A DNA stretch of 64,000 nucleotides, from positions 136 to 64,135 of the forward strand of contig CAWACN010000023.1 in the NCBI GenBank assembly GCA_963780525.1, written 5' to 3'. The position numbers were made by a program, and so were the translations under genes. The stretch comes from an uncultured Acidimicrobiaceae bacterium. GTDB lineage: Bacteria; Actinomycetota; Acidimicrobiia; Acidimicrobiales; RAAP-2. The notes under the pieces were generated by a model. The model was not told the origin of the DNA, did not search any database, and saw only the letters and a program-made list of their open reading frames with translations. Positions 20,860 to 56,163 of the stretch are shown here, piece by piece. How positions within the stretch are numbered: the first letter of the stretch is position 1; every line of letters starts with the position of its first letter.

Positions 20860-20877
20860 AAAAGAGGACCCTCTTTT
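20860..20877. promoter_or_regulatory. 18-bp palindrome AAAAGAGG-AC-CCTCTTTT (AAAGAG-N4-CTCTTT box)
   Basis: It has perfect 8-bp arms and lies 17-34 nt upstream of the ABC ATPase ATG (20843). A GGGAGGG Shine-Dalgarno sequence sits between the box and the start. Confidence 0.5.
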
Positions 20878-20931
20878 TTGCACCCTAGCAGAGTGGATCC
20901 GCAGGCTCAGGTCGGAACCAGCGTCTCAGGT

Positions 20932-21008
20932 GACAGCAGAATCTCGAGGTCAGGCCACCCGACGGCGGATGGTCGACCTCGACAAAGAGTGTGATGAATT
21001 CTGCTGTC
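20932..21008. terminator. long nested inverted repeat (candidate terminator or structured RNA)
   Basis: The outer arms are GACAGCAGAAT (20932-20942) and ATTCTGCTGTC (20998-21008). The inner arms are TCGAGGTC (20944-20951) and GACCTCGA (20975-20982). It lies 37 nt downstream of the hydrolase stop on the minus strand, with no U-tract. Confidence 0.35.
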
Positions 21009-21044
21009 GAGCCGGGGTCATGCCCCGCCCACGCTCCTTTCCGC

Positions 21045-22484
21045 TCATCCGTCGGCGAGGCGGAGCGGGAACGAGTGCGCGGCCACCGCCAGGATCTCTA
21101 TGCGGTCCTCCTCGAGGAGGAAGCCGGCGGCGATGGCTGCATCGAGCGAGGCACCGAAGCGATCGAGGTACTCATCCTCGCCTCCGGTATAGAGCTTCGA
21201 CAAGGTGCCCTCGTCGAAAGGCTCGGTGCGTCCGAACAACATGGCGAAGGTCTCGCCGGACTGCCCCAGCCCGCTCATGACGGCTGTCGGCACGTCTACC
21301 CACGGGGTGCGGATCCCACCCTTGGCGATCCCGTGCTCGTCGAGGACGTAATCGGTCCGGTCGCCGTTGAGTTCGAGGGAAGGAGCCGATGGCGGCGCAT
21401 CACCACCGGCGGACCAGCGCACCAGGTGAGCCAGTGCCGCCTGCGCCACGTAATGCTGCTGGGGCCCGGCGTTGATTGGCGTGTCCGTCTGGCCGATCAG
21501 CAGGTCCCTCGTCGGACGCAGCAGCTCGGCCATGCGCTGGGCGGACAAGGTGCCGTCGTCGTGTCGCCCCGCGCTGACCGTGTAGGTGTCGGCATGCGCT
21601 GCGCCGGCCATCTCCCACACGCGCAGGCGATCCGTATCGGGTTGCTCGGCCAAGCCTCCACCGAGCAGGACGACGTCGGTCTCGCTCTGCAAGGTCAACA
21701 CCGGCACGCGGGCGTCGTCGCGGATCCGCTCACCCTGCGACGAAATCGCCACGCGTGTCGCCTCCATGCCCAACCGCGCCGACGCCGGGATGAACACGCC
21801 GTCGATGGAGACGCCCGACGCCGGCCGGCCGTGGACGAAGAACCCGTCGAAGAGCTGCGCATGAGGATCGATGGCGTTGATGTAGGTCACCAGGCACGCA
21901 GCGGACTGGGACTCACCCGCAGCCAGGATCTGCGATGGCTTTAGCCCACCGAGCGGGTTCTCGTCGCTCGGCAGCTGCAACAACCGGCCCACCTGCGTGA
22001 AGATGTCAAAGGACCAGGCGTCGCCGGGATGCTCGAGGTCGCCGTAGCGCTCGGGGTCCAGCAGCTTGAGATGGATGCTCTCGACGAAGCCACCCCCGTC
22101 GATGCCGACCTTCTGCGCCGAAACGCCGACCCAGGCGTGCCCCGCCGCGGCCAGCGAACGATGGAAGAAGCCCCAGTCGGGTGCGGCGTCGATACCAGCC
22201 GAGACGTTGTGCCACTCCACGACGACGGTCCCGCTGAACCGCAGCGGGCCCGACGGTTTCCGCACGACGATGCGGGTACGAAAGGGGGCCTCTGGGCCAG
22301 TCGTCACGTCCCACCGTCCGTCGGCGCCGCGTTCCCCCTGCAGCTCGTACGAGACGGCGGTTCCCTCGAAGCTGAACTCGGTCTCTTCGTACCCGAGCGT
22401 GGCCAGGTCGTAGTCCCGCATCACGTCGGGTGCCGCGCCCGGCATCTCGCGAAACGCTGTCTCTCGTGTGCTGGCCACGGTCAT
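21045..22484 (-). CDS. alpha/beta hydrolase domain protein
   Basis: 479 aa with a nucleophile-elbow-like AAGESQSAAC and normal composition. The subfamily is not certain. Confidence 0.75.
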   Translation of the reverse strand: MTVASTRETAFREMPGAAPDVMRDYDLATLGYEETEFSFEGTAVSYELQGERGADGRWDVTTGPEAPFRTRIVVRKPSGPLRFSGTVVVEWHNVSAGIDAAPDWGFFHRSLAAAGHAWVGVSAQKVGIDGGGFVESIHLKLLDPERYGDLEHPGDAWSFDIFTQVGRLLQLPSDENPLGGLKPSQILAAGESQSAACLVTYINAIDPHAQLFDGFFVHGRPASGVSIDGVFIPASARLGMEATRVAISSQGERIRDDARVPVLTLQSETDVVLLGGGLAEQPDTDRLRVWEMAGAAHADTYTVSAGRHDDGTLSAQRMAELLRPTRDLLIGQTDTPINAGPQQHYVAQAALAHLVRWSAGGDAPPSAPSLELNGDRTDYVLDEHGIAKGGIRTPWVDVPTAVMSGLGQSGETFAMLFGRTEPFDEGTLSKLYTGGEDEYLDRFGASLDAAIAAGFLLEEDRIEILAVAAHSFPLRLADG

Positions 22485-22527
22485 CCTCCTGGTGGGAAGG
22501 CGGGGGATCGACTCGATCCACCCGCCT

Positions 22528-22543
22528 ATTGGGGATACTCTTT
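22528..22543. promoter_or_regulatory. half-conserved box ATTGGGGATACTCTTT
   Basis: It shares the 11-mer GGATACTCTTT with the 32482 and 28556 boxes. It lies between the divergent hydrolase (22484) and thiolase (22605) genes. Confidence 0.4.
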
Positions 22544-22604
22544 ATCGCCGGTCGGCGCGACCGGCGACGACCCCGCACGGAGCGGAGAGGGACGAGGATA
22601 GGAC

Positions 22605-23843
22605 GTGACTGAGGCCTGGATCATCGACGCCTGCCGGACGCCGCGTGGCATCGGCAAGGTGGGGAAGGGCGCACTGGCGGAGATCCATCCCCAGGTCCTC
22701 GGCGCCACCGTCCTCCGAGCGCTCGCCAAACGAACGGGCCTCGACACCGGCGACGTCGACGACATCGTCTGGGGCACCTCGAATCAAGCCGGGACCCAAG
22801 GCGGCGACCTGGGCCGCATGGCCGCGCTCGACGCGGGCTACGCCACGACCGCCAGCGGCGTCACCTTGGACCGCTTCTGCGGGTCGGGCATCTCCTCGGT
22901 CAACTTCGCCGCTGCGTCGGTCATGTCCGGGATGGAAGACGTGGTCGTTGCCGGTGGCACCGAAATGATGTCCTCCTACGGCGCCAACGCGTTGAAGTCG
23001 CGGTCACCATTTCTCGACGGCGGCAACGAGCACCTCCGGGCCATCCACCCTCAGACCAATCAGGGCGTGGCTGCCGACGCCATCGCCACGCTGGAGGGCA
23101 TCGATCGCCGCGCCGTGGACGAGTTGGCCGCGGAGTCACAGCGTCGGGCCGAGATCGCGATCAAGGAGGGGCGCTTCGACCGGTCCCTCGTGACGGTGCA
23201 CCACCTCGACGGTTCCGTCGCACTGGACCGTGAGGAGTATCCGCGCCCGGGTACGACGGCCGACTCGCTGGCCTCGTTGCCTGCGTCGTTCGAGTCGCTG
23301 GCGGACTACCAGCTCGACGAGGCGGGGACGACCTACCGCTCCCTGGTCCTGCAGAAGTTCCCCGGCCTCGAGATCACGCACGTTCACCACGCCGGGAACT
23401 CTTCAGGTGTCGTCGACGGGGCCGCCGCCATCCTGATGACAACTCCCGCCTACGCATCTGCACACGGTCTGGCTCCCCGGGCGCGCATTGTCGCCACGGC
23501 CAACATGGGCGACGACCCGACGTTGATGCTCAATGCGCCGGTTCCGGCCACGAGGAAGGTGGTCGCCAAGGCCGGCATGTCGCTGGCCGACATCGACCTG
23601 TTCGAGGTCAACGAGGCCTTCGCCGTCGTGCCCGAGAAGTACATTCGCGACCTCGACATCGACCGCGAGAAGATCAACGTGAACGGCGGCGCAATCGCAC
23701 TGGGCCACCCCATCGGGGCAACGGGCTCTCTCCTGGTCGGGACCGCCCTCGATGAACTGGAACGCCGGGACAAGCAGGTTGCGCTCATCACCATGTGCGC
23801 CGGAGGCGGCATGGCGCCGGCGGTGATCATCGAACGGGTCTGA
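22605..23843 (+). CDS. acetyl-CoA C-acyltransferase (thiolase)
   Basis: The active-site regions LDRFCGSG, NVNGGAIALGHPIGATG and MCAGGGMA are present. The start is GTG. Confidence 0.92.
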   Translation: MTEAWIIDACRTPRGIGKVGKGALAEIHPQVLGATVLRALAKRTGLDTGDVDDIVWGTSNQAGTQGGDLGRMAALDAGYATTASGVTLDRFCGSGISSVNFAAASVMSGMEDVVVAGGTEMMSSYGANALKSRSPFLDGGNEHLRAIHPQTNQGVAADAIATLEGIDRRAVDELAAESQRRAEIAIKEGRFDRSLVTVHHLDGSVALDREEYPRPGTTADSLASLPASFESLADYQLDEAGTTYRSLVLQKFPGLEITHVHHAGNSSGVVDGAAAILMTTPAYASAHGLAPRARIVATANMGDDPTLMLNAPVPATRKVVAKAGMSLADIDLFEVNEAFAVVPEKYIRDLDIDREKINVNGGAIALGHPIGATGSLLVGTALDELERRDKQVALITMCAGGGMAPAVIIERV

Positions 23844-23892
23844 CTCCGGGAGCCGGTTGAGGGCGGCGTCGCGCCCGTGCTACGCATCACCC

Positions 23893-24858: not shown

Positions 24859-24877
24859 GAGCCGCTTCGAGGATTGG

Positions 24878-26101: not shown

Positions 26102-26162
26102 GCGATTGCGGTGTTGTTACGAGGGACTGGCATAGAGACCGGCATGGACTCGGACAATAGGG

Positions 26163-27461
26163 CTAGTGAGCGCCGGCGGGCGTGCGCTTCACCGCCTTGC
26201 TCAAGTCAGATGACTTGACGACGCCGGTGACCTTCTCCTTGGGCTTGGTCGAACGCACCGACACGTCATGGCCTTCGGCCTGTGCCCGCAGGGCACCGAC
26301 CGTGCAGTTCTCGCGACCGCCGAGGGTCGAGAAGGGGTCGAACTCGAAGTGGCGCATGGCGTTGAGGTGCGTCATGCGATTGATGTCGTGGTCGCTGACG
26401 CCCTCGAGATAGAGGCCGAGCTCCTCGGGTGAGAACGGCCAGGTCGAGTCGGAGTGCGGGTAGTCGCACTCCCACATGACGTTGTCCATGTTCAAGAAGT
26501 CGCGACTGGCCACGCCGAAGCGATCGTCGATGAAGCACGTCAGCACGTGCTCGTCGAAGACCTCGCTGGGCAGCTTGTCCCCGAAGTCCTGGCCGGTCCA
26601 CGTGTGGTGCTGCTTGTACTGGTAGTCGATGCGCTCGAGGAAGTAGGGGATCCAGCCGATCCCACCCTCGGACAGCGCCACCCGCACGTCGGGGAAGCGG
26701 CGGAAGACCGAGGACCAGATCAGGTCCGTCGCCGCCTGCACAATGTTGATCGGGGTCAGCGTGATCAGGCAGTCAATGGGCGCGTCCGGCGAGGTGATGA
26801 CCATCTGCGAGGAGGACCCGATGTGCATGCACGCCACCACCCCCTCGTCGCTGCAGGCCTTCCACATCGGGTCCCAGTGGTCCGAGTGCAGGCTGGGCCA
26901 GCCCAGCTTGGAGGGGTTCTCGGAGAAGGTCACCGCATGGGCTCCCTTCGCCGCCGTCCGTCGGATCTCTGCCGCCAAGACCTCGGGATCCCAGATGGCG
27001 GGCAGGGCGAGCGGAATGAAGCGCCCGGGCTGCGAGCCGCACCACTCGTCGATGTGCCAGTCGTTGTAGGCCTGGAGCATGGCCAAGGCCACGTCCTTGT
27101 CCTCGGTCCTGGCGAACATCTGCCCGCAGAATTGCGGGAAGGAGGGAAAGCAGAGCGCACCCAACACGCCGTTTGCGTTCATGTCCTTGATGCGCTCGTT
27201 CACGTCGTAACAGCCGGGGCGGATGTCGTTGAAGGAGGTCGGCTCAATGCCGTACTCGTCCTTCGGCCTGCCCGCCACGGCATTCAGTGCGACGTTGCCG
27301 ACTTCCGTCCCTTCGTAGCTCCAGACGTTGGTGCCGTCCTCCTTGGTGAGGAATTGCGGGGCCAGATCGACGTACTTCTTGGGCAGGCGGTCCTTGAAGA
27401 GATCGGGTGGCTCGACCACGTGGTCGTCGACGCTGACCAGAACCATGTCGTTGATGTTCAC
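26163..27461 (-). CDS. amidohydrolase family protein (Amidohydro_2 / ACMSD-like)
   Basis: It contains VLVSVDDHVVEPPDLFKDRLP...HAVTFSENP...WECDYPHSDSTWP. The GTG at 27461 is preceded by GGGGGA; an ATG at 27446 is an alternative. The upstream part of track ORF 26163..27698 has poor codon bias. Confidence 0.88.
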   Translation of the reverse strand: MNINDMVLVSVDDHVVEPPDLFKDRLPKKYVDLAPQFLTKEDGTNVWSYEGTEVGNVALNAVAGRPKDEYGIEPTSFNDIRPGCYDVNERIKDMNANGVLGALCFPSFPQFCGQMFARTEDKDVALAMLQAYNDWHIDEWCGSQPGRFIPLALPAIWDPEVLAAEIRRTAAKGAHAVTFSENPSKLGWPSLHSDHWDPMWKACSDEGVVACMHIGSSSQMVITSPDAPIDCLITLTPINIVQAATDLIWSSVFRRFPDVRVALSEGGIGWIPYFLERIDYQYKQHHTWTGQDFGDKLPSEVFDEHVLTCFIDDRFGVASRDFLNMDNVMWECDYPHSDSTWPFSPEELGLYLEGVSDHDINRMTHLNAMRHFEFDPFSTLGGRENCTVGALRAQAEGHDVSVRSTKPKEKVTGVVKSSDLSKAVKRTPAGAH

Positions 27462-27665
27462 TTGTCCCCCTAGGAACCGTTGATCATTTTGCCCGTCTTG
27501 GCGATATCGGTCTGCATGTCGTGAAGCCGCAGGAGAGCAGACCCCGGGTCGCACCTGCGTTGACGTGATCAGTCTGGTACATATCGAACACCAACCGGAC
27601 GGCGAAGTGAAAGTCCTGCACGTCGAGGTCTGATGCGCTGCCGTGCCGCCGGGCAAGGTGATGAT

Positions 27666-27691
27666 CGTTTTCTGATGTACTGCAGAAAACG
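27666..27691 (-). terminator. hairpin CGTTTTCTG-N8-CAGAAAACG (terminator/attenuator or operator candidate)
   Basis: It has a 9-bp perfect stem and lies 56 nt downstream of the crotonase stop, inside a 285-bp non-coding spacer. There is no U-tract. Confidence 0.3.
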
Positions 27692-27746
27692 CTCGCAACT
27701 TTCAGAACGGGCGAGCCTCCCGCGCGTCGTGCTCACTTCGGGCGGG

Positions 27747-28555: not shown

Positions 28556-28571
28556 AAAGAGTATCCTCTTT
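28556..28571. promoter_or_regulatory. 16-bp box AAAGAGTATCCTCTTT (reverse complement of AAAGAGGATACTCTTT)
   Basis: It has perfect 6-bp arms. It lies between the divergent crotonase (start 28524) and SDR (start 28693) genes. It shares a 14-mer with the box at 32482. Confidence 0.55.
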
Positions 28572-28692
28572 GTGCGCCGCGGCCCGGTTTGCGGCCGGGG
28601 CACGCGGCCGACAGCATCACACACGACCAATCGACTACAGACAAGCCGACGCCGCTGGCAGCCGGCGTCGGAACAATGGAGAGGAACACTTC

Positions 28693-32481: not shown

Positions 32482-32497
32482 ATAGAGGATACTCTTT
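32482..32497. promoter_or_regulatory. 16-bp box ATAGAGGATACTCTTT abutting a start codon
   Basis: It ends 5 nt before ATG 32503. The embedded TACTCT ends 7 nt before the ATG, which suggests a leaderless mRNA. Confidence 0.55.
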
Positions 32498-32502: not shown

Positions 32503-34660
32503 ATGCCGATCGCCATCACCGAAGACCACCAGACCCTGGGCCAGACGGCCTCGGACTTCCTGGCCAAGCACGATTCCCGAGGAGCAGCCCGGGCCCTGCT
32601 GGAGGCCGGGACCGAAGCCCTGCCCTCGTTCTGGGGCGACATCGCCGAGCTGGGATGGCTGGGGCTGCACCTGCCCGAGGAGCACGGCGGATCGGGCTTC
32701 GGCCTGCCCGAGCTGGTCGTCGTTGTCGAGGAGCTCGGGCGGGCCCTGACGCCCGGACCCTTCATCCCGACCGTGATCGCCAGCGCGGTCATTGACACTG
32801 CCGGCTCCGACGAGCTGGCCGCCCGGTTGCTGCCCGGCTTGGCCGATGGGTCCGTGGTGGCCGGCGTCGCCCTCGAAGGGGACGTCACCGTGCGCGACGG
32901 TCGGGCCGCCGGGACGGTGCCGGCGGTGTTGGGTGGTGGCCTCGCCCACATCCTCGTCCTGCCGGTGGGGGACGACGTCATCGTCGTCGACGTCTCGGCC
33001 GGCGGGGTGCAGGTGGAGGTGCCACCCAACCTCGACCCCACGCGGCGTTCGGCCCGCGTCAGCCTCGACGGCGCACCGGCCGAAGTGATCGCCGGCGGAA
33101 GGCGGGCCCTGGTCGACCTCGCTCGCCTCATTGTGGCCGCCGAAGCGACCGGTGTCGCCAACGAATGCACCGAGCAGGCGGCCGCCTACGCCAAGGTGCG
33201 CGTGCAGTTCGGCCGGCCCATCGCGACCTTCCAAGCCGTCAAGCACCACTGCGCCAACATGCTGGTGGCCTCCGAGCTGGCGACCGGGGCCGTGTGGGAC
33301 GCGGCCCGGGCGGCGAGCGAGGGCGCCGACCAGTTCACCTACGCCGCTGCCATCGCCGCCGCGCTGGCCCTCGCGGCGGGTGACGAGTGCGCCAACCTCA
33401 ACACCCAGGTGCACGGCGGCATCGCGATCACGTGGGAGCACGACGCGCACCTGTATCTCCGCCGGGCGACCGCACTCGAGGCGTTCGTCGACGGCGAGGC
33501 GGCCGCCCGTGAGATCACCGACCTGGTCCGCCAAGGAGCACGGCGCACGCGCACCATCGACCTGCCACCCGAGGCCGAGCCCATGCGCGACGAGGTGCGA
33601 GCCTTCGCGCAGCGTGTGCACGGCCTCGACGCCGCGGCGCAGCGCGACGCCATGATCGAGACCGGGCTACGTCATGCCGCACTGGCCCCTGCCCTGGGGC
33701 CGCAACGCCGGCGCGGTCGAGCAACTCGTCATTGAGCAGGAGTTCGCGGCGGCCGACGTGAAGCGTCCGCAGTACTCCATCACCGGATGGGTCATTCTGA
33801 CGCTGATCCAGAACGCCACGAAGGATCAGGTCGAGCGCTGGGTCCTCCCCGCACTGCGCCAGGACGTCATTTGGTGCCAGCTGTTCAGCGAACCCGAGGC
33901 CGGGAGCGACGCCGCCGGTGTCAGGACGCGCGGGACGCGGGTGGACGGCGGCTGGCTGGTGAACGGCCAGAAGGTCTGGACGAGCGGGGCGCACTATGCC
34001 AGCTTCGGCTTGGCCACCATCCGCACCGATCCCGAGGCGCCGAAGCACGAAGGCATCACGACCATGGTGATCGACATGCATGCCGAAGGTGTGGAGGTGC
34101 GTCCGTTGCGCATGACCACGGGACAGTCGGAATTCAACGAGGTCTTCTTCAACGACGTGTTCGTACCGGACGACGATGTCGTCGGCCCCGTGAACGGTGG
34201 CTGGACGGTGGCGCGAGCCACACTCGGCAACGAGAGCGTCTCCATCGGCGGCGGTCAGGGCGGCCAGACCACGCCGGCCGGCGTGATCATCGGGCCGTAC
34301 GATGCCCACCCGGAGCGCCTGCCGGGCGGAGCCGGGCGGATCGGTCGCTACATAGCCCAGACCGAGGCCGTGACACTGCTCAACATGCGCACCGCCCACC
34401 GCGCGCTCATCGGTGGTGGCCCCGGCCCCGAGGGCAACGTCACCAAGCTGGTGCTGACCGAGATCGGCCACGAGGCGACGGCCATCACCGTCGCGGTGAG
34501 TGGGTCCGGGACCCTGTTCAGCGACGGTGCCGGCGCAATGGTGTCGGCCATGGTGCTCATGCACCGGGGCATGTCGATCGCCGGCGGCACGTCCGAGATC
34601 AAACGCAACCAGATCGGCGAGCGCATCCTCGGCCTGCCGCGGGACCCGCTCATCAACTAG
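32503..34660 (+). pseudogene. two-domain (fused alpha/beta-type) acyl-CoA dehydrogenase, apparent +1 frameshift at 33664-33667
   Basis: Domain 1 is in the frame of ORF 32431..33735 (MPIAITEDHQTLGQTASDF...VHGGIAITWEHDAHLYLRRA...PMRDEVRAFAQRVHGLDAAAQRDAMIETG). Domain 2 is in ORF 33674..34660 (YVMPHWPLPWGRNAG...WCQLFSEPEAGSD...GGTSEIKRNQIGERILGLPRD). No stop separates the domains. The junction is accGGGctac. A paralog reads EAGY at the same point. Confidence 0.8.
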
Positions 34661-37498: not shown

Positions 37499-38302
37499 TC
37501 AGCGTCCCTTCCAGACCGGGTCGCGCTTTTCGATGAAGGCGGTGGCACCCTCCTTGGCGTCCTCGCTGCCGAACACCTTGGGCTGCCATTCGGCCGCCAG
37601 CACCTTGGCCCGCTCCAGGTCGGTGGACGCGGTTCGCACCATCTGCTTCGTCGCGTGCAACGCCAGAGGACCGTTCCGTGCGATCCGCTCGGCCAGGGCC
37701 ACTGCAGCGTCGAGGACCTCGGCGGGTGGGACGACCTGGTTGATCAGGCCGAGGGACAGCGCCCGTTCGGCATCGATGGAGTCGCCGGTCAGCGTCAACT
37801 CGAGTGCGACGGCCAGCGGGATGCGCGTGCTGATGAACACGCCTCCGCCGGCGGCGAAAAGGCCGCGCTTGACCTCGGGCACCCCGAAAGAGGCGGCGGA
37901 CGATGCGACCACCACGTCGCAGCCGAGGAGAAGCTCGAAGCCGCCGGCCACGGCTGTGGCGTTGGCTGCGCCGACGATGGGGACGGCAATCTCCCCGTTG
38001 GTGAAGCGGACGAAACCGCGCATGGCGTCCGGATTGCCGCTCATGCCGCCCGAACCGCCCTCGGCGAAACCACGCAGATCCATGCCGGCGCAGAAGGCCC
38101 GGTCGCCCGTCCCGGTGAGCACCACCGCACGGACTTCGGGATCCTGCTCCGCATCGAGCATGGCGAGTCCGATGGCCGACAGCAGCTCGGGGTTCAGTGC
38201 ATTGCGCGCCTCAGGCCGGTTGAGGCGCAGCACCTGCACCGCTCCCCGTCGCTCCTTGACGAGTACCGGCTCGGCCGGACCCTCCGCAGCAGTGTCCGTC
38301 AT
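37499..38302 (-). CDS. enoyl-CoA hydratase/isomerase
   Basis: It shows VQVLRLNRPEARNAL...AFCAGMDL...AVAGGFELLLGCD and the C-terminal EGATAFIEKRDPVWKG. Confidence 0.92.
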   Translation of the reverse strand: MTDTAAEGPAEPVLVKERRGAVQVLRLNRPEARNALNPELLSAIGLAMLDAEQDPEVRAVVLTGTGDRAFCAGMDLRGFAEGGSGGMSGNPDAMRGFVRFTNGEIAVPIVGAANATAVAGGFELLLGCDVVVASSAASFGVPEVKRGLFAAGGGVFISTRIPLAVALELTLTGDSIDAERALSLGLINQVVPPAEVLDAAVALAERIARNGPLALHATKQMVRTASTDLERAKVLAAEWQPKVFGSEDAKEGATAFIEKRDPVWKGR

Positions 38303-38450: not shown

Positions 38451-38466
38451 GTTGAGTATACTGAAT
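38451..38466. promoter_or_regulatory. degenerate box GTTGAGTATACTGAAT (core palindrome AGTATACT)
   Basis: It lies in the 195-bp gap between two divergent crotonase genes (38302 and 38498). Confidence 0.3.
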
Positions 38467-38497: not shown

Positions 38498-39349
38498 GTG
38501 GCAGAGCCCTCGACCGGGAGCGACCAGAGCAGCGGACCCGTGATCCTGACCGACGTGGTCGACCATGTGGGAACCATCACTTTGAACCGCCCCAGCCGGC
38601 GCAACGCGCTCGACGGCGAGCTCATCGGCGCGCTCGACGGTGCAGTGCAACAGATGGCTGAGGATCCCGACGTGAGAGTCGTGATCCTCACCGGCGCGGC
38701 GGCCGAAGGCCACCTCGGTGGCTTCTGCTCCGGGGGCGACATCAAGAGCGGAGCCCGGGGTGCCCCGGGCAGCGAGAAGGGCGTCCCTCCGGATGCTCTC
38801 TCCGGCGACCTCTCCCGCCATGATCACCACGCCGCCATGCGGCTCCATCTCATGCCGAAACCGACCATCGCGATGGTCGGCGGCCCGGCCGTGGGAGCCG
38901 GCTGCAGTCTGGCCGCGGCCTGCGACCTCCGCTTCGCATCGGACGACGTGGTCTTCTCGGCGGGCTTCCTGCCCAACGGCCTCGCAGGCGACTACGGCGG
39001 CTCCTTCTTCTGGACCCGCATCGGAGGAACGGGGCTCGCCCGGCGCCTGTACCTGCTCAACGAGAAGATCGGAGCTCCCGAGGCACTGACGCTCGGCATG
39101 GTGCACGCCGTCGTCGCTCCCGAACAGCTCCGCTCCTACGCCGATGGCGTCGCCCGTCAACTCGTGCGGGCTCCCGCCAGCGTGCTCGCCCTGGTAAAGG
39201 ACAATCTCAACGCAGCCGAAGACGAGGTCGAGCGGCGGCGCTGGCTGTTCGCGCACGAGGCGGAGAATCAGAGAACCGCCGGCCATGGCCTTCTCGAGCG
39301 CCTGGCACGCACACAAGCGGGGGCAGACCGGCCTCCGGAGCGTTCATGA
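38498..39349 (+). CDS. enoyl-CoA hydratase/isomerase
   Basis: It shows VGTITLNRPSRRNAL...GFCSGGDI...GPAVGAGCSLAAACD and starts with GTG. The C-terminal tail is atypical but in frame. Confidence 0.85.
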   Translation: MAEPSTGSDQSSGPVILTDVVDHVGTITLNRPSRRNALDGELIGALDGAVQQMAEDPDVRVVILTGAAAEGHLGGFCSGGDIKSGARGAPGSEKGVPPDALSGDLSRHDHHAAMRLHLMPKPTIAMVGGPAVGAGCSLAAACDLRFASDDVVFSAGFLPNGLAGDYGGSFFWTRIGGTGLARRLYLLNEKIGAPEALTLGMVHAVVAPEQLRSYADGVARQLVRAPASVLALVKDNLNAAEDEVERRRWLFAHEAENQRTAGHGLLERLARTQAGADRPPERS

Positions 39350-40977: not shown

Positions 40978-40993
40978 AAAGAGGATACTAAAA
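40978..40993. promoter_or_regulatory. box AAAGAGGATACTAAAA (left arm and spacer conserved)
   Basis: It shares the 12-mer AAAGAGGATACT with the 32482/28556 boxes and lies 46-61 nt upstream of the dehydratase ATG. On the gene strand it contains TAGTAT. Confidence 0.45.
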
Positions 40994-41044: not shown

Positions 41045-42475
41045 TCAGCGCATGAGCGACCCGAGCGCCTCGAGGTGCCGCCGCATGCGGTGGCGCGCCA
41101 GCTCGCGGTCGCCGGCCGCCACGGCCTCGGCGATCCCGGTGTGGGTGCGCAGGACCTCCGCCTGGATCTGGCGCTGCATTTTCGGAGCAAGTCGCTCAAT
41201 CTGGTGCAGGCGGCTGAGCCGGATGAGGACGAGCGCGACGAGGAAGAGCACCCGGTTCTGGGCGGCGGCCGCCACCGCCGCGTGCAGGTCGTGCACCGCC
41301 TCCACCCGCTCGGCGTCCGTGGCGTTCTCCTCACGGGTCAAGGCGTCGCGCAGGCCGGCGATGCCCGCCTCGTCGATGCGTTCCGCCGCCAAGTCGGTGA
41401 TGGCAACCTCGACCCCGGTCCGCATTTCTGCCAGCTCGTCCAGGCGCATGCCGCGGCGGGCCAGGAAGATGGCGGCCACCTCTGTGACCGCGTCAGCACT
41501 CGGTGCCAGTACGAAGAGGCCGCCGCCGGGACCCCGCCGCATGCGGGCGACGTGGTGATGTTCAAGCAGCCGCACCGCCTCGCGGAGCAGTGCTCGGCTC
41601 ACGCCTTCCCGGGCGATCAGCTCGGGCTCCGTCCCCACCAGATCTCCGGGCTGCAGATCCTCGGCCACGATGGTCTGGGTGATGTGACGGGCCACCGTCT
41701 CGGCGCCCTTGCCGAGACCCGAGTCTGCGAGCACCACCGAGTCGGGCAGCAGCTGGCGGGTCGAACGGCGACGGCGGAAGAACTCGGCCTCGGCCTGGAG
41801 ATGCTTGCGCATCCGATTCCGGGCCAGTCCCCCGTCGCCGGCCATCACGGCTTCGGCGATCATGGCGTGCGCGTGAACGGCCTCTTTCTCCACGTTGCTG
41901 CCGAGCCGTCGCCAATCGGGCGAGTAGAGCTGGGCCACCTGGTTGAACACATCGACGAAGAGGGCAAGGCCGGCGTTGTGGCTGCTGGCGGCCACCAGCG
42001 CGTGCAACTCGCGCGGGTCGCGTTCGGACTCGACCGGTTCGCTGTGGGCGAAGCGCCGCAACTCGGACAACTCCACCTCGTCGGTCCGTTCGGACGCGAG
42101 CTGGGCGGCGAGCTCCTCCAAAATGATGCGGGCCTCGAAGATCTCGTCGAGCCGGGCGTCCACCCTGTGCAGATAGAGGACGACCGCGTCGATTACCGCA
42201 TCGATCGTCGGTTCGGTGATGACGAGGCCGCCGCCCGGACCCCGACGGGTGCGGGCGACCTGCTGGTGTTCGAGCAGGCGGACCGCCTCCCGGAACACGG
42301 CGCGACTCACCTGGTAGCGCTCCAGCAGGTCGGCCTCCGACCCGAGCACCACTCCGACCGGCCAGCCCATGGCCATGACGTCCTCGATGATGCAGTCGGC
42401 CACCTTGGCCGCCCGCTTGGCGTTGGAGTCCGCCCCGGGCCGCGGCATTTCACGGTCAGCCGCCGGCATCGTCAT
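41045..42475 (-). CDS. tandem-duplicated GntR/FadR-type regulator (paralog of 16257..17714)
   Basis: Repeat 1 is LLERYQVSRAVFREAVRLLEHQQVARTRRGPGGGLVITEPT...ARNRMRKHLQAEAEFF. Repeat 2 is LIAREGVSRALLREAVRLLEHHHVARMRRGPGGGLFVLAPS...ARHRMRRHLEALGSLM. Confidence 0.85.
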   Translation of the reverse strand: MTMPAADREMPRPGADSNAKRAAKVADCIIEDVMAMGWPVGVVLGSEADLLERYQVSRAVFREAVRLLEHQQVARTRRGPGGGLVITEPTIDAVIDAVVLYLHRVDARLDEIFEARIILEELAAQLASERTDEVELSELRRFAHSEPVESERDPRELHALVAASSHNAGLALFVDVFNQVAQLYSPDWRRLGSNVEKEAVHAHAMIAEAVMAGDGGLARNRMRKHLQAEAEFFRRRRSTRQLLPDSVVLADSGLGKGAETVARHITQTIVAEDLQPGDLVGTEPELIAREGVSRALLREAVRLLEHHHVARMRRGPGGGLFVLAPSADAVTEVAAIFLARRGMRLDELAEMRTGVEVAITDLAAERIDEAGIAGLRDALTREENATDAERVEAVHDLHAAVAAAAQNRVLFLVALVLIRLSRLHQIERLAPKMQRQIQAEVLRTHTGIAEAVAAGDRELARHRMRRHLEALGSLMR

Positions 42476-42576
42476 CGGGCAAGCCTACCCCCCGCCCCCT
42501 CCTCACTCACTCCCTTTGACCTGCATGTTCGCCAAAAGAGTGGACCGAAAAGCTGGGCCCGGACCCGGGCGTGATT

Positions 42577-42589
42577 ATGTTGAAAACAT
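42577..42589. promoter_or_regulatory. A/T-rich palindrome ATGTT-GAA-AACAT (candidate operator)
   Basis: It lies 34 nt upstream of the DUF2889 ATG, in the 147-bp divergent gap. The downstream TetR is the obvious candidate binder. Confidence 0.3.
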
Positions 42590-42622
42590 GATTTTCGAAG
42601 ACCCACGGCACCGACGACGCCC

Positions 42623-43636: not shown

Positions 43637-44290
43637 GTGGGTAACGCCGACATCGCCCCTGCGGTGCCTGCGGCGCGGAGTGGCCGGCCCCGGCGCTTCG
43701 AGGCCGACGACGAGCTCCGCATCCTCCTTGACGCTGCGCTCGTGGTCATGGAGCGCAACGGCTACACCGACGCGGCCGTGGCCGACATCCTCGACGAGGC
43801 TGCTCTGTCGACACGCTCGTTCTACCGCCACTTCGAGTCCAAGGATCAGCTTCTCTGCGCGCTCTTCCGCCGCGAGGCCGACGCGGCGGCAGAGCGCCTC
43901 CGCGCCAAGGTCGATGCCACTCGAACCCCCCGAGAGGCGCTGCGTGTGTGGATCGACGAGATCCTCAGCTTCGGGCACGACGGGGCCAAGGCGGCTCGCA
44001 TGCGCGTGCTGGGATCTCCCGGCGCCATGAGGGCCGAGGGGTACGCGCGGGAGATGCGCCATGCGGCGCGGATCCTGACGGCGCCACTGCAGGACCTTCT
44101 CTGCCGAGGGGCCGCCGACGGCTCCTTTCCCGGCGCCGACCCGGCGGCCGACGCGCCCCTGATTCAGTCGGTCGTCTGGGCCGCCGCGGGGCTCAACGCG
44201 GCCCGGGACATGCCGTCCTCACGAGCCCATGCCGCGCGCCAGGTGCGATCGTTCTGCGAGCGCGCGTTGGGGGTCACCACCGCGACCTGA
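43637..44290 (+). CDS. TetR/AcrR family transcriptional regulator
   Basis: The HTH region ILLDAALVVMERNGYTDAAVADILDEAALSTRSFYRHFESKDQLL is present. The GTG start is 6 nt after the DUF2889 stop. Confidence 0.9.
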   Translation: MGNADIAPAVPAARSGRPRRFEADDELRILLDAALVVMERNGYTDAAVADILDEAALSTRSFYRHFESKDQLLCALFRREADAAAERLRAKVDATRTPREALRVWIDEILSFGHDGAKAARMRVLGSPGAMRAEGYAREMRHAARILTAPLQDLLCRGAADGSFPGADPAADAPLIQSVVWAAAGLNAARDMPSSRAHAARQVRSFCERALGVTTAT

Positions 44291-49372: not shown

Positions 49373-49377
49373 GGCGA

Positions 49378-49393
49378 ATAGAGTATACCAATA
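49378..49393. promoter_or_regulatory. box-like element ATAGAGTATACCAATA filling a 21-bp divergent gap
   Basis: The whole intergenic region between ATG 49372 (minus) and ATG 49394 (plus) is GGCGAATAGAGTATACCAATA. The minus strand reads TATACT 9 nt before its ATG. Confidence 0.4.
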
Positions 49394-49897
49394 ATGCCTT
49401 CCGATCGCCTGGCCAGCGACGATCCGACCCCGCCATCGCCGTCGAGTCCGCAACCGCACCGGGCGTCCCAGCAGGGTTGTTGGATCTTCGACGTCGACGG
49501 CTGCCTGATCGACTCCCTCACGGGCACCTCGCTGCGCCCCGGCGCTCGCGACATCCTCGAGCACCTTGCCGCCACCGGCCGGCGGGCGATCCTCTGGAGC
49601 GCCGGTGGCGACGCCTACGCCCGGGGCCGCGCCGAGCAGTTCGGGTTGGCGGGCCTGATCGACGGCTTCTTCGCCAAGGACGGTCGGGACGCCGACGGTT
49701 ACTACCTGACCACCCACCTCCCGCTGCCCCACCCCCAGGACAGGCCCACCGTGTTCGTCGACGACCGCCCCGAAGACCTGGACCCCACCCTCCCGGTGAT
49801 CGCCGTCTCGCCCTACCTGAGCGACGACCCGTTCGACCGGGGGCTGGACGGCGTTGCCGGACGAGCCGGGCTGGCCGGAACCCCCGACCGGAAATAG
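49394..49897 (+). CDS. HAD-superfamily hydrolase
   Basis: Motif I is WIFDVDGCLIDS and motif IV is VFVDDRPED. It has a Pro/Ser-rich 30-aa leader with no alternative canonical start in frame. Confidence 0.7.
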   Translation: MPSDRLASDDPTPPSPSSPQPHRASQQGCWIFDVDGCLIDSLTGTSLRPGARDILEHLAATGRRAILWSAGGDAYARGRAEQFGLAGLIDGFFAKDGRDADGYYLTTHLPLPHPQDRPTVFVDDRPEDLDPTLPVIAVSPYLSDDPFDRGLDGVAGRAGLAGTPDRK

Positions 49898-49946
49898 GGT
49901 GTACCCATCTCTCGACGGCAGAGAGCAGATCGGGGGCATCGAACAC

Positions 49947-51152
49947 ATGGCTGGCCCGTTGCAGGGAGTCCGCGTCGTGGAGGTGGCCAACTGGACCTTC
50001 GTGCCGGCGGCCGGCGCCGTGCTGGCCGACCTCGGGGCCGACGTCATCAAGGTGGAACCGCCAAACGGGGACCCGCAGCGGGCGCTGCTCAACATGCTCA
50101 ACCTGGGCGGAGGCGGTCCCAACCCTTTCATCGAGATCCCGAACCGGGGCAAGCGCAGCGTCACCTGCGACCTGAGCACCGAAGGCGGGCGCGAGGCCCT
50201 GGCTGCCATCGTCCGCACAGCGGACGTGTTCGTGACGTCGAACCTGGCGCCCATCCGCGCCAAGCTGCGGATCGACGTCGACGACATCCGGGCGATCAAC
50301 CCCGACATCATCTACGTGCGCGGCACCGGCTGGGGTCCCGAGGGCCCGATGGCCGACGTCGGTGGTTACGACATGGCCTGCGGGTGGGCCAGCAGCGGCA
50401 TGGCGTTCAAAATGACGCCGGGCGGCATCGAGCCACTCCCCCAACCCCCTGCCTTCTTCGATCTCCAAGGCGCCAACACGATCGCCGGCGCCATCGGCTT
50501 CGCGCTCTTCAAGCGCTCCAACACGGGCGAGACATCGGTCGTCGACGTGTCACTGCTCCATGTGGGCATGTGGGCGCTGTCGCCCGACATCACCGGCAGT
50601 CCGTACATGGGCGACATCGCGTCGTACGGCGATCGCACCCTCGCACCGAACCCGCTCGTCAACGGCTACGCCACCAAGGATGACCGCTGGATCTACTTCG
50701 TCTGCCTGCAGCCTGACCGCTTCTGGGACGAGTTCTGCACGCTCCTCGGTCGGCCGGATCTGATCACCGATGCCCGCTACGACAGCGCCGCCCACCGCTA
50801 CGAGAACCGTTCGGACCTCGTCCACGAGCTCGACGCGGTCTTCAGCACGCTGACGCTCGACGAGGTCAAGGAGAAGTTCACCGGCTTCAGTGGCGTATGG
50901 GCCCCGGTGCTGCGCCCGTCCGAGCTCCACACCCATCCCCAGGTCGATGCCAACGGCTTCCTGCCCTCGGTGACGGCACACGACGGCAGCGACTACCGCA
51001 TTGTGGCGGCGCCGGCCCACTTCTCGGGCCACACCACCGCGCCACCCGGGCCCGCCCCCGAGTTGGGTCAGCACACCGAAGAGGTCCTTCTCGAGGCAGG
51101 GCTCGACTGGGACGCCATCACGTCGCTGCGTGAAGGCGGAGGACTGGGCTAG
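49947..51152 (+). CDS. family III CoA-transferase (CaiB/BaiF)
   Basis: It contains MAGPLQGVRVVEVANWTFVPAAGAVLADLGADVIKVEPPNGDP and GTGWGPEGPMADVGGYD. Confidence 0.9.
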   Translation: MAGPLQGVRVVEVANWTFVPAAGAVLADLGADVIKVEPPNGDPQRALLNMLNLGGGGPNPFIEIPNRGKRSVTCDLSTEGGREALAAIVRTADVFVTSNLAPIRAKLRIDVDDIRAINPDIIYVRGTGWGPEGPMADVGGYDMACGWASSGMAFKMTPGGIEPLPQPPAFFDLQGANTIAGAIGFALFKRSNTGETSVVDVSLLHVGMWALSPDITGSPYMGDIASYGDRTLAPNPLVNGYATKDDRWIYFVCLQPDRFWDEFCTLLGRPDLITDARYDSAAHRYENRSDLVHELDAVFSTLTLDEVKEKFTGFSGVWAPVLRPSELHTHPQVDANGFLPSVTAHDGSDYRIVAAPAHFSGHTTAPPGPAPELGQHTEEVLLEAGLDWDAITSLREGGGLG

Positions 51153-51158
51153 GCGCCT

Positions 51159-52100: not shown

Positions 52101-52161
52101 CTCAGCGAGCAGGGCTTCGGCGCTCAGAGGTTCGAGGATCGCGAGACGTTACCCTGCCGTC

Positions 52162-53375: not shown

Positions 53376-53382
53376 GCCCGTG

Positions 53383-54903
53383 TCAGCTCCAGGCCAGGTT
53401 CTTCACCTCCGTGAAGTCCTCCAGCCCGTGACGGCCCCACTCACGGCCCAGCCCAGACTGCTTGAAGCCACCAAAGGCCCCGCTCTGCCCGATACCAGTG
53501 AACGTCGAACCCCACCCGGGGCCCTGCCCACCGCCCGGACCGACGTCGGCCAGCGGCTCGGTGCCGACCTTCTGCACCGTGACGAGGCCGGCGCGGATCT
53601 GACGGGCGACGTTGAAGGCCCGTGAGTCCGAGGTGGACACGACGCCGCCACCCAGGCCGTAGATGGAGTCGTTGGCCAACCGCACCGCGTCCTCGTCCGA
53701 GCCCGAGTACGGCACCACCGTGAGCACCGGCCCGAAGATCTCCTCCTGGGCGATGCGCAGGTCATTGCCGCTCACGAAAACCGTCGGCTCGAAGTAGAAG
53801 CCCTTGTCCATCCCCTCGGGCCGCTTCCCCCCGCACAGCAGCTCGGCGCCCTGCTCCAGTCCCGAAGCCACGTAGCCCTCGACCCGTGCGCGCTGCTGCT
53901 CACGGATGAGCGGGCCCAATACGGTGCCCTCAGCACGAGGGTCACCGATTGTGATCATCGGCCGCATCGCCTCCAGGCCATCCTTGTAGGCGTCGAGCAG
54001 GTGTTCGGGCAACAGGATCCGCGTGTGGATCACGCAGCCCTGGCCGCAGTGCATCAGGACCTGCCCGAAGCCGATGGAGCGGGCGTAGTCCTCGCCCACG
54101 TCACCGAGCACCACCGTGGCGCTCTTGCCGCCGAGTTCGAGTTGGACCTTCTTCACCGTCGCGGCGGCGGACCCCATGATGCGGCGCCCGGTCGCCGTCG
54201 AACCCGTGAAGGTGACCATGTCGACCATTGGGTTCGACGTCAGCTCGTCGCCCACCTCGCCGTGCCCCGTGATCACGTTGAGCACGCCGGGCGGAATGCC
54301 CGCCTCCGCCGCCGCCTCCGCGATCATCATGGCGTCGAGTGGCGTCCACGGGTGCGGCTTGAGGACCACCGTGCAGCCGACGGCCAGGGCCGGGGCCACC
54401 TTGACGATGTTCAGCATGAAGGGAAAGTTGAACGGCGTGATGGCCGCCACCACGCCGATCGGCTCGCGCACAATGGCACTGCCGCCCAATCCCGTCGGGC
54501 CGCCGGTCGGCATGGCGTTCTCGACCCAGGGAAAAGAGTGCTCGACCAGTGCCGCGTTCGACCGCAGCATCCCGATCGAACCCGCCCCTTGGACGGCGTC
54601 GGTGAGGAACCCGGTCGATCCGGTCTCGGCGACGATCAGTTCGCGCAGATCCCCAGCCCGGCCCTCGAGGATCTCGGCCATCGCCACCAACCGGGCGGCG
54701 CGCTCCGCCGGCTTCATGTAGGGCCAGGGCCCTTCGTCGAAGGCCCGGCGCGCCGCTTCGACGGCCCGCAGCGCGGTCTTGGTCGAGGCTTCGGGGACGG
54801 ACCCGATCACCTCCTCGGTGGCGGGGTCCACCACCTCAATGGAGCCCGACGCCCCTTCCGACGTCCACGCCCCGTCGATGAACAGTTCGTAGTTCCAGTT
54901 CAT
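53383..54903 (-). CDS. aldehyde dehydrogenase (NAD(P)+)
   Basis: It shows MNWNYELFIDGAWT...VREPIGVVAAITPFNFP...LELGGKSATVV...HCGQGCVIHTR...EEIFGPVL. Confidence 0.92.
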   Translation of the reverse strand: MNWNYELFIDGAWTSEGASGSIEVVDPATEEVIGSVPEASTKTALRAVEAARRAFDEGPWPYMKPAERAARLVAMAEILEGRAGDLRELIVAETGSTGFLTDAVQGAGSIGMLRSNAALVEHSFPWVENAMPTGGPTGLGGSAIVREPIGVVAAITPFNFPFMLNIVKVAPALAVGCTVVLKPHPWTPLDAMMIAEAAAEAGIPPGVLNVITGHGEVGDELTSNPMVDMVTFTGSTATGRRIMGSAAATVKKVQLELGGKSATVVLGDVGEDYARSIGFGQVLMHCGQGCVIHTRILLPEHLLDAYKDGLEAMRPMITIGDPRAEGTVLGPLIREQQRARVEGYVASGLEQGAELLCGGKRPEGMDKGFYFEPTVFVSGNDLRIAQEEIFGPVLTVVPYSGSDEDAVRLANDSIYGLGGGVVSTSDSRAFNVARQIRAGLVTVQKVGTEPLADVGPGGGQGPGWGSTFTGIGQSGAFGGFKQSGLGREWGRHGLEDFTEVKNLAWS

Positions 54904-54944
54904 CCGATCCTCTCCATGTCCATGTCGCCCCCAACCCACTCCGC

Positions 54945-56131
54945 TCACACGTCCCAGCTCAACTCGAGCCGGTCGATCCCGTACAGACCACCACCGTGCT
55001 CGGTGACGTCGACCCCGGGCGTCAGCCAATAGGTCGGAATCACCCGGTGCCATTCCTCCAACGCCACTCGCAGCTCCCGCCGGGCAAGATGCGACCCGAG
55101 ACAACGATGCGGTCCCGCTCCGAACGCGACATGGTTGTTCGCGGCACGATCGAACCGCACCGTCGCTGCGTCGTCGCCGAACACGGCGGGGTCACGGGTC
55201 GCGCCGCACAAGGGAGTGAACACCATGTCGCCCTTCTTCAGCGGGCAGCCGTGGAAGTCGGCGTCCTGCATCACTTTGCGCGAAGGCGCCACGAAGGCGA
55301 ACTGACGCAGGAACTCTTCCACTGCCGCCGGCACGACCGACGCGTCGGATGCGAGCACCTGACGGTCATCCGGATGTGTCGCCAAATGCCAGAAGGCGTA
55401 GCTCAGTTGGATCGAGACGGTGTCGAGCCCGGCCATGAACATCAGAAGGCACCACGAGAGCAGGTCTTCGTGCGCAATGGGCTGCCCATCAATGCGCCAC
55501 GACAGCGAGGCCGACAACAGGTCGTCTGCCGGCGCCCGCCGTTTTTCCTCGAGCAACTCGGCGAAGTACCCCATGACGGCCAGCATCGCCTCGAGCGCAC
55601 CCGAGCGTTCCGGGTCGTCGCCCCCAGCCGGGTGGAGGATCGCATGCTCCCAGGCCAGGAACTGCTCCAACCCGTCGGCGGGCAAGCCCATCAACTCCAT
55701 GAAGATCGACGTCGGATAGCGCCATGCAAAGTCGCGCAGGAAGTCGCAATGACCGGTACTCCTGCGATCGCCCCGATCAATTCGACGCAACGCTCCCTGA
55801 CCTTGTCCTCCAACCGTTCCATGGCTCGGGGTGCGAAGTGCGGCGCCAGCAATTGCCGCCAGACGGTGTGCTCGGGCGGGTCGAGCATCTCGGGGATCCA
55901 CCTGTACGGAGGGTCGGGGTCGTGGACGGTCACCACCGTGCTGGAGAAGACGTCCGGATGCTGCAGCGCCTCCCGGATCAGCGCTGCGTCCGTGAAGACC
56001 CAGAAGCCGTTCCCATAGGTGCTGCGCACGAAGGGGTGCTCGGCCCGCAGGCCGTCGATCTCCTTGGCGTGCGACAGGACGGGCCCGGTGGTGGCCTCGT
56101 TGAAGGCGCAGACCGGGTACCCCTCGTCCAT
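54945..56131 (-). pseudogene. cytochrome P450, apparent -1 frameshift near 55757-55762
   Basis: The N-terminal part (ORF 55691..56158) MDEGYPVCAFNE...LDPPEHTVWRQLLAPHF...VELIGAIAG continues in ORF 54945..56444 as STGHCDFLRDFAWRYPTSIFMELMGLP...VEEFLRQ...FGAGPHRCLGSHLA. The ATG at 56131 is preceded by GGGAAGGGG. Confidence 0.8.
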
Positions 56132-56147
56132 TCCCACCCCTTCCCCT

Positions 56148-56163
56148 ATTGAGGACACTCTGT
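56148..56163. promoter_or_regulatory. degenerate box ATTGAGGACACTCTGT
   Basis: It matches the AAAGAGGATACTCTTT form at 12/16 positions. It lies in the divergent gap between the P450 (56131) and the aldehyde dehydrogenase (56284). Confidence 0.35.

Follow-up and report, generated by a model that had tools for sequence, protein, structure and literature searches.

Which protein, if any, reads the 16-bp dyad-symmetric box, AAAGAG-N4-CTCTTT, that recurs in the promoter gaps of a catabolic gene island in an uncultured actinobacterium? The question is raised by a 64,000-nt stretch of contig CAWACN010000023.1 (hereafter the window; G+C content 68.5%) from an uncultured Acidimicrobiaceae bacterium. 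A first-pass annotation of this DNA had quoted nine copies of the box and proposed that they are sites of a dimeric repressor. Our analysis shows that the box recurs beyond chance, lies between genes, leaves footprints in the promoters of relatives, co-occurs with genes for tandem GntR regulators and fits the architecture of GntR operators. Judged from sequence, the box is probably the operator of a pathway-specific repressor of the island, and the likeliest binders are two tandem GntR regulators of the FadR subfamily.

Recurrence and conservation of the box

Genes were mapped with a frame-aware composition model (a frame hidden Markov model) and Pfam. Each of the nine quoted sequences was recovered at its coordinates inside an intergenic gap, and on the gene map all nine gaps lie 5′ of genes. 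A scan with a symmetrised matrix adds one convincing box (20984) and two weak candidates (42535 and 49894) that the first-pass annotation had overlooked. The boxes and an associated promoter element are listed below.

16236..16251: box ATTGAGTATAACCTAT, in the divergent gap between a P450 gene (− strand, ATG 16197) and a tandem GntR gene (+ strand, ATG 16257)
20860..20877 (core 20861-20876): box AAAAGAGGACCCTCTTTT, with perfect 8-bp arms
20882..20887, − strand: probable −10 element (TAGGGT) for the ABC exporter, 5 nt upstream of box 20861
20984..20999: additional box AAAGAGTGTGATGAAT, in the same gap as box 20861 and 123 bp apart from it
22528..22543: box ATTGGGGATACTCTTT, in the divergent gap between an Abhydrolase_10 gene (− strand) and a thiolase gene (+ strand, GTG 22605)
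28556..28571: box AAAGAGTATCCTCTTT, in the divergent gap between a crotonase gene (− strand, ATG 28528) and an SDR gene (+ strand)
32482..32497, + strand: box ATAGAGGATACTCTTT, 5 nt before ATG 32503 of a leaderless gene for a fused acyl-CoA dehydrogenase (ACAD)
38451..38466: box GTTGAGTATACTGAAT, between two enoyl-CoA hydratase (ECH) genes, 37499-38302 (− strand) and 38498-39349 (+ strand)
40978..40993: box AAAGAGGATACTAAAA, between the stop codon of the tandem GntR gene 41045-42475 (− strand) and the start of a MaoC-like hydratase gene (40932, − strand)
42535..42550: weak half-box candidate AAAGAGTGGACCGAAA, upstream of GntR 41045-42475, 10.2 bits, low confidence
49378..49393: box ATAGAGTATACCAATA, read on the − strand as TATTGGTATACTCTAT, then 5 nt, then ATG 49372 of a leaderless FadD gene
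49894..49909: weak candidate ATAGGGTGTACCCATC, upstream of the CoA-transferase gene 49854-51152, 15.1 bits, low confidence
56148..56163: box ATTGAGGACACTCTGT, abutting the Shine-Dalgarno (SD) sequence GGGGAAGGGG of a P450 gene (− strand) and 16 nt from its ATG (56131), known from the window sequence

The 8-bp arms of the copy at 20860-20877 are indeed perfect, and the word AGAGGATACTCTTT is common to box 32482 and the reverse complement of box 28556. The core of box 38451, AGTATACT, is a perfect palindrome. Across sites the consensus reads A-W-W-G-A-G-K-R in the first half and Y-M-C-T-C-W-W-T in the second; symmetrised counts give AWWGAG[T/G]A followed by T[A/C]CTCWWT. Similarity between sites stops at 16 bp, and on this ground a repeat or mobile element was rejected as the source of the copies. 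A literature search with the box sequence returned only primers and unrelated matches.

The recurrence is not explained by base composition. With up to two mismatches, AAAGAGN4CTCTTT occurs three times in the window, where whole-window shuffles predict 0.35 occurrences. In an unbiased k-mer scan, the most over-represented 11-mer of the window is AAAGAGTATCC, found at 22533, 28556 and 32487 (3 observed, 0.001 expected). The enrichment over shuffled intergenic DNA was confirmed on the approximately 4.6 kb of gaps, considering 11-mers with at least six A/T positions: none of 2000 shuffles placed such a word in three gaps, and none of 2000 did so when shuffling was confined to 20-nt blocks, which keeps the A/T islands. 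The test was limited to A/T-containing words because G+C-rich 11-mers recur, being common to three gaps in 3.6% of shuffles when no composition filter is applied, which leaves the unfiltered test weak. At a threshold of at least 9 bits, the symmetrised matrix finds 12 sites in the window, compared with 1.45 per 64 kb in 1.45 Mb of actinobacterial control loci. This matrix was partly trained on the window sites, and conservation in relatives therefore serves as the independent evidence.

Relatives comprised 80 loci around amidohydrolase homologs in reference genomes, 19 metagenomic loci around homologs of GntR 16257 and three loci around fused-ACAD homologs; individual loci carry numbers with the prefix L. 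In alignments of orthologous promoters (ACAD, thiolase, ABC exporter, crotonase/SDR, MaoC, ECH and GntR), the box stands as a conserved island amid diverged DNA. Conservation extends from 8 nt before the −10 hexamer TANNNT to 2 nt after it, spanning at least 16 nt, beyond which the flanks become unalignable. The earlier claim that conservation extends past the hexamer is thus borne out by phylogenetic footprinting. The six copies first described as partial or weaker are also real in so far as they occupy gaps 5′ of genes, and orthologous copies are known for 16236, 22528, 38451, 40978 and 49378.

Several promoters illustrate the footprint. At the ACAD promoter, ATA[GA]AGG[AG]TACT[CA]TTT followed by 4-5 nt and ATG is kept in L100, L101 and L102, whose fused ACADs are 90%, 79% and 71% identical to that of the window, and the DNA upstream is unalignable. 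The box is present on the leaderless promoter of GntR 16257 in all orthologs; A[TA][TA]GAGT[AG]TAA[CT][CT]TAT is kept in eleven loci (L001, L081-L090), even in L088, where the upstream flank is unrelated. The thiolase copy GGATACTCTTT is unchanged in six loci and remains with the thiolase gene where the neighbouring gene differs (L001, L101). The ABC box is invariant over 19 nt in seven loci (the window, L001, L082, L085, L087, L088 and L101), and the adjoining N-terminal coding sequence has diverged. Box 20984 is identical in L101 (at 2748) and near-identical, as AAAGAGTATGACGAAT, in L087 and L089.

Other sites have counterparts as well. The ECH site of L100, TTGAGTGTACTAAA, is a conserved island within diverged flanks, and the FadD site of L099, TAATGGTATCCTCTTT, lies between the same two genes as in the window (the g49394 homolog and FadD). 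Relatives of box 40978 are AAAGAGTATACTAAAA in L100 and AAACAGGATACTCTTC, upstream of MaoC, in L095. Directly after the GntR stop codon, L091 and L092 carry AAAGAGACTACTCTTT and AAAGAGGTTACCCTTT; at this site the arms are kept and the centre varies, from AAAGAG-GATA-CTAAAA in the window to AAAGAG-ACTA-CTCTTT in L091 and AAAGAG-GTTA-CCCTTT in L092. Symmetry is less well kept at the crotonase/SDR promoter (L001, L002, L085, L100, L101), where the SDR-side arm and the TA core are retained and the other arm varies. The weak candidate at 42535 has no counterpart in L100.

In L102, the locus with the most distant of these ACADs, a 510-aa tandem GntR gene lies directly upstream of the fused ACAD gene, and its called start looks over-extended, with a box, ATAGGGTGTACTGTAT (6916-6931), followed by 5 nt and an ATG inside the call. 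A further box, ATATAGGATCCCCTAT (8044-8059), fills the 30-bp gap between thiolase-like and ChsH2-like genes.

Promoter geometry

The boxes fall into two promoter geometries, with transcription start sites (TSSs) placed by their distances from the −10 elements. In class I, a TANNNT hexamer lies inside the box and points at the gene, usually as TACTCT at box positions 9-14, as in box 32482. At ACAD (ATG 32503), FadD (ATG 49372, − strand) and GntR (ATG 16257), the start codon follows the box by 5 nt and the hexamer by 7 nt. With the ATG only 5 nt past the box, these three genes must be leaderless and the box must be their −10 region.

In the divergent gaps at 16236, 28556 and 38451, the near-palindromic core gives a hexamer on each strand. 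At box 16236, the hexamer for the leaderless GntR gene, whose start lies 5 nt further downstream, is TAACCT, and that for the P450 gene, on the opposite strand, is TATACT. Box 28556 presents TACTCT toward the crotonase gene and TATCCT toward the SDR gene. In box 22528, TACTCT is oriented toward the thiolase gene.

Class II comprises the ABC exporter box (20861) and the P450 box (56148; gene start 56131). These boxes have no internal TANNNT and begin 5 nt past a −10-like hexamer that lies outside them and reads TAGGGT at the ABC exporter and TATCTG (− strand) at the P450 gene; the box end abuts the SD sequence, 16-17 nt before the ATG. At the ABC exporter, the box lies 17 nt 5′ of the ATG (20843, − strand), next to the SD sequence GGGAGGG, and, going by these distances, would probably cover about +1 to +18. 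The upstream hexamer reads TAGGGT, TATGGT, TAGCGT or TAGCCT among orthologs, with changes at the N positions only.

A protein bound at a class I box would occlude the −10 element, and one bound at a class II box would cover the start site. At leaderless genes, the class I geometry means that operator and −10 element have to be one piece of DNA. The proposed dyad site of a dimeric repressor at the −10 element or TSS remains the best-supported reading, given the conservation beyond TANNNT and the invariance of the hexamer-free ABC box.

The candidate regulators and competing explanations

The first-pass annotation had named four candidate binders in the window, two tandem GntR proteins and two TetR proteins. 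The GntR proteins retain their candidacy, as boxes track their gene and sit on its own promoter; the TetR proteins appear less likely. The two preferred candidates are as follows.

16257..17714, + strand: tandem GntR-FCD regulator of 485 aa, with two complete modules of winged helix-turn-helix (wHTH) plus FCD domain; proposed binder, predicted to be autoregulated
41045..42475, − strand: tandem GntR-FCD regulator of 476 aa, 52% identical to 16257 over its full length; proposed second binder

Each half of these proteins is a full FadR-subfamily module, and the halves are about 40% identical to each other. Between the paralogs, N-terminal to N-terminal and C-terminal to C-terminal identities are 52-55%, above the identity within a chain, so the internal duplication predates the paralog split. 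The recognition helices of the two proteins are near-identical. Among 46 homologs, the recognition-helix sequence SRAVFREA and the wing sequence RRGPGGG show little or no variation in either half, which argues that purifying selection maintains both DNA-binding domains. Since both are maintained, both should read similar half-sites, matching the dyad. One chain, having two complete modules whose recognition helices are almost the same, could thus behave as a covalent pseudo-dimer and touch the two arms of the dyad by itself.

An AlphaFold2 model of the whole two-module chain has a predicted template-modelling (TM) score of 0.83, a value that agrees with the two modules being packed in a definite way. 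In the PDB, searches by sequence and by fold returned single-module relatives only (PmiR, DhdR, NanR, Atu1419/VanR and FadR), none of which spans both halves; in the fold search, which compared single chains, similarity to Atu1419 extended over one module, with TM scores normalised to the query of at most 0.35. Against NCBIfam, the regulator falls below the cut-off of every characterised-group model, with NanR, LldR, PdhR and GlcC as the best sub-threshold matches. A literature search for tandem or pseudo-dimeric GntR proteins found none.

Co-occurrence links the box to these regulators. With training confined to the nine window sites and a threshold of at least 16 bits, a matrix finds a site in 18 of 22 loci that carry a tandem GntR gene (0.166 per kb) and in 3 of 79 loci that lack one (0.0034 per kb), a difference of about 50-fold that is supportive rather than decisive. 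The site-bearing set includes L102 and loci whose GntR is just 47-62% identical (L091, L092, L095 and L099). At 14 bits or more, six of seven distant GntR loci have a site (L091, L092, L095, L098, L099 and L102), and in each of the six it adjoins the GntR gene or sits on its promoter.

The form of the box also agrees with what is known of this family. GntR-family operators are palindromes of the type NyGT-Nx-ACNy, and those of the FadR subfamily are A/T-rich (PMC4494728), with a GT-AC distance of 3 nt, or of 2 nt in the GntR, HpxS, HypR, MdcY and PrpR groups (PMC4494728, Suvorova et al. 2015). By this rule, the earlier statement that the box does not resemble FadR/GntR operators was mistaken: the idealised box, AAAGAGTATACTCTTT, is palindromic, rich in A/T and centred on GT-N2-AC, a resemblance that strengthens the assignment to the tandem GntR proteins. 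Boxes 38451 and 49378 contain GAGTATAC, with GT-N2-AC as in the ideal GAGTATACTC, and box 16236 contains GAGTATAAC, with GT-N3-AC; boxes 28556, 32482, 22528 and 40978 have GT in one half only (GTATCC). In the symmetrised 24-site set, A/T fills 90% of the 288 cells at positions 1-3 and 14-16, in a genome of 68% G+C.

Further likenesses to the FadR-subfamily operators (PMC4494728) are a length of about 16 bp, sites in the regulator's own promoter and in divergent gaps, imperfect symmetry and extra half-sites nearby. The cognate regulators are likewise at hand, with two tandem GntR-FCD genes in the window and a box on the promoter of 16257. However, the box has GAGT/ACTC instead of TKGT/ACMA, often with G for T at position 7 (GGATAC), and TTGGTA-like halves occur only as variants, TATTGGTA at FadD and TAATGGTA in L099. 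FadR-subfamily regulators are, in addition, homodimers of subunits of about 230 aa, in contrast to the presumed covalent two-module tandem described here.

A close parallel is Atu1419, a VanR-type FCD GntR protein of Agrobacterium fabrum, which represses catabolic genes by binding ATGTATACAT at sites that overlap the −10 boxes of its targets (PMC7797058). Its sites occur in pairs 109-190 bp apart, and it binds a 10-bp palindrome as a homotetramer, a dimer of dimers (PMC7797058). The core GTATAC is common to GAGTATACTC and ATGTATACAT, the overlap with the −10 element is shared, and window boxes 20861 and 20984 lie 123 bp apart, as in the Atu1419 pairs. In contrast to the 10-bp palindrome of Atu1419, the conserved span here is 16 bp, with outer arms AAAGAG, and the chain is a fusion of two modules.

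Steroid and lipid catabolic islands in Mycobacterium and Rhodococcus are controlled by KstR and KstR2, which belong to the TetR family. The likeness to the present system is one of function only, in that a single palindromic operator is repeated over the promoters of a lipid/steroid-type island and overlaps them; the regulator family and the motif are different. Some fused-ACAD homologs are automatically annotated as 3-oxochol-4-en-24-oyl-CoA dehydrogenase. In agreement with the first-pass annotation, the box bears no likeness to these operators, and the KstR and KstR2 patterns TnnAACnnGTTnnA and AnCAAGnnCTTGnT have no matches in the window. The HAIR/HspR site, CTTGAGT-N7-ACTCAAG, was also considered and rejected, as it has only TTGAGT in common with the box.

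A tandem GntR repressor acting at these sites would control the P450s, FadD, the fused ACAD, the crotonases, the MaoC hydratase, the thiolase, the ABC exporter and its own gene. It would be released by a ligand from the pathway, perhaps an acid or acyl-CoA that the FCD domains bind. Here we infer that the box is bound and by which protein, that regulation is negative, where transcription starts and what acts as ligand.

Several observations weigh against this assignment. The TANNNT positions T9, A10 and T14 are among the most invariant of the box, so part of the signal is the core promoter itself, and about half of the sites have one good arm only. The gap upstream of GntR 41045 holds a weak candidate site only. 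L094 carries a tandem GntR gene (52% identical), yet has no site of 14 bits or more. Co-occurrence is confounded by phylogeny and by retrieval, the GntR-positive loci having been fetched via the GntR gene or a regulon gene.

A further difficulty is posed by locus L069 of Streptomyces sp. NPDC002088, where three sites resemble the box and no GntR/FCD gene is found within 10 kb. These sites (8015, 13158 and 14038: AAAGAGTATACGCTTA, AAAGAGTACAACGAAT and AAAGAGTATCCGCTTT) adjoin homologous catabolic genes, namely thiolase, crotonase, luciferase-like monooxygenase and MFS genes. Their second arm is consistently asymmetric, with AAAGAG...CGCTT[AT] at 8015 and 14038 and AAAGAG...CGAAT at 13158. The assignment to the tandem GntR proteins leaves L069 unexplained.

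The best-surviving competitor, which we nevertheless regard as unlikely, holds that RNA polymerase itself recognises the box as a core promoter element specific to the lineage or to a sigma factor, consisting of a TACTCT −10, an A/T-rich 'GAG' extension and a TT discriminator. Its dyad appearance would come from divergent promoters whose −10 elements overlap on the two strands. The near-invariance of the TANNNT positions and the degenerate arms speak for it, as do the fixed spacing of hexamer, 7 nt and ATG at three leaderless genes and the provision of one TANNNT per strand for the divergent genes at 16236, 28556 and 38451. However, the boxes at 20861 and 56148 contain no TANNNT, and the ABC box is invariant in seven loci with its TANNNT lying 5 nt upstream. 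Dyads also occur at the non-divergent ACAD (32482) and MaoC (40978) promoters, and across 1.45 Mb of other Acidimicrobiales and actinobacterial loci the box occurs about 50 times less often.

The box is also missing from other promoter gaps of the window. The earlier remark that nearly every A/T-rich island carries it was overstated, as the islands at 1838-1875, 42571-42601, 27668-27689 and 61328-61358 bear other palindromes. With at least three other promoter gaps lacking the box and carrying different palindromes, the box is not a general promoter feature. A promoter of the ECF-type sigma factor encoded at 61824-63146 was considered and rejected, since no conserved −35 element accompanies the boxes upstream.

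Next comes the possibility, rather improbable in our judgement, that the box is a true operator of another binder, either TetR 1919-2584, TetR 43637-44290 or a factor encoded outside the window. Such a binder would accommodate L069 and the lack of a strong site upstream of GntR 41045, and also L101, where the 22 kb fetched include five boxes but no regulator; its contig, however, is as long as the one that carries GntR homolog P0062, and the two may be the same. The TetR candidates meet with specific objections. Their promoter islands (1838-1875 and 42571-42601) bear palindromes of their own, AAGCATGCTT and ATGTTGAAAACAT, that differ from the box, and L092, L095, L098, L099 and L102 have boxes and a tandem GntR gene and no homolog of either window TetR. 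The motif type, moreover, fits FadR-subfamily GntR proteins and not TetR proteins (PMC4494728).

Action at the RNA level, with the boxes serving as 5′-terminal hairpins, attenuators or weak terminators, is very unlikely. For the ABC exporter and P450 56131, the first ~18 nt of the mRNA would consist of the box, which can form a 7-bp stem and abuts the SD sequence, and at the ABC site the spacer is invariant as well. However, the leaderless ACAD, FadD and GntR genes have the box ahead of both the start codon and the start site and hence outside the mRNA. The stems are short and A/U-rich, most copies have imperfect arms with no compensatory changes, and Rfam covariance models at the gathering score gave no match in the 64-kb window. 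Chance resemblance among A/T-rich promoter islands picked by eye is scarcely credible: although the six weaker copies were selected by eye and matrix scores are circular for the window, it is contradicted by the unbiased k-mer ranking, the intergenic shuffles (0/2000) and the independent conservation in relatives.

The catabolic island and its regulation

The island resembles systems for beta-oxidation or steroid-side-chain-like catabolism. It contains two P450s, a FadD-type ligase, several acyl-CoA dehydrogenases, five crotonase-family genes, a MaoC-like hydratase and a thiolase, along with family III CoA-transferases, aldehyde dehydrogenases (ALDHs), an ABC-2 exporter, two TetR genes and the two tandem GntR genes. 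The closest relatives of proteins from the central window come from metagenome-assembled genomes (MAGs) of uncultured Acidimicrobiaceae and Acidimicrobiales; one such protein is the amidohydrolase 26163-27698, which shares 93% identity with a homolog from an MFD-series MAG. In NCBIfam the target enzymes fall in no equivalog, and the thiolase alone passes a subfamily cut-off.

The fused ACAD is a single 718-aa open reading frame in relatives and is split across frames in the window (32503-34660). Frame switches also affect the P450 gene 54945-56131 (near 55748) and the genes at 56251-57775, 57879-59106 and 18765-20843; the genes concerned include an ALDH, a CoA-transferase and the ABC fusion, and their homologs are intact. 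The pattern suggests indel errors from long-read assembly; alternatively, the genes may be pseudogenes.

Other features of the window stand apart from the box. A second recurrent palindrome, TTCTG-N8-CAGAA, has two perfect intergenic copies, TTTTCTGATGTACTGCAGAAAA (27670-27687) upstream of the amidohydrolase/CoA-transferase operon and TTTTCTGGAAAGAGCCAGAATTTT (61331-61348) in the divergent gap next to ALDH 59748-61217; chance would yield 0.66 matches when up to one mismatch is allowed. A different regulator may use this palindrome as its operator. The 5′ region of the SDR gene (28572-28690) contains a conserved untranslated stretch between box and start codon, with the hairpin CCCGGTTTGCGGCCGGG and, after it, GACAGCATCACACACGACC, that is kept in L001, L002, L085, L100 and L101 while neighbouring bases vary. 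This stretch has no Rfam match and could be a leader or attenuator element. The ECF-type sigma factor at 61824-63146 has a C-terminal DUF6596 extension and lies at the island edge.

Acidimicrobiia are abundant in soils and peat and almost entirely uncultured, and we know of no characterised transcriptional regulon or transcription factor in the class. The box and its targets are probably a newly recognised operator and regulon of familiar GntR type. Their chief interest lies in the covalently duplicated regulator and in leaderless genes whose operator and −10 element would be fused. A bolder interpretation, offered tentatively, is that the binders represent an undescribed single-chain class of duplicated FadR-type regulators (wHTH-FCD-wHTH-FCD, ~480 aa), common in uncultured soil Acidimicrobiales, that act as pseudo-dimers on a 16-bp dyad doubling as a leaderless −10 element. 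Their diverged FCD domains could integrate two ligands, and the paralogs may share one operator for a KstR-like lipid/steroid regulon.

If the assignment to the tandem GntR proteins is true, they would provide a natural example of a covalently fused GntR pseudo-dimer, in a family whose relatives in the PDB are single-module only. Motif scanning could delimit the catabolic regulon in MAGs. The operator, its target list and a candidate regulator together offer a testable handle on the substrates of these bacteria, and the ligand of the regulator would name the pathway.

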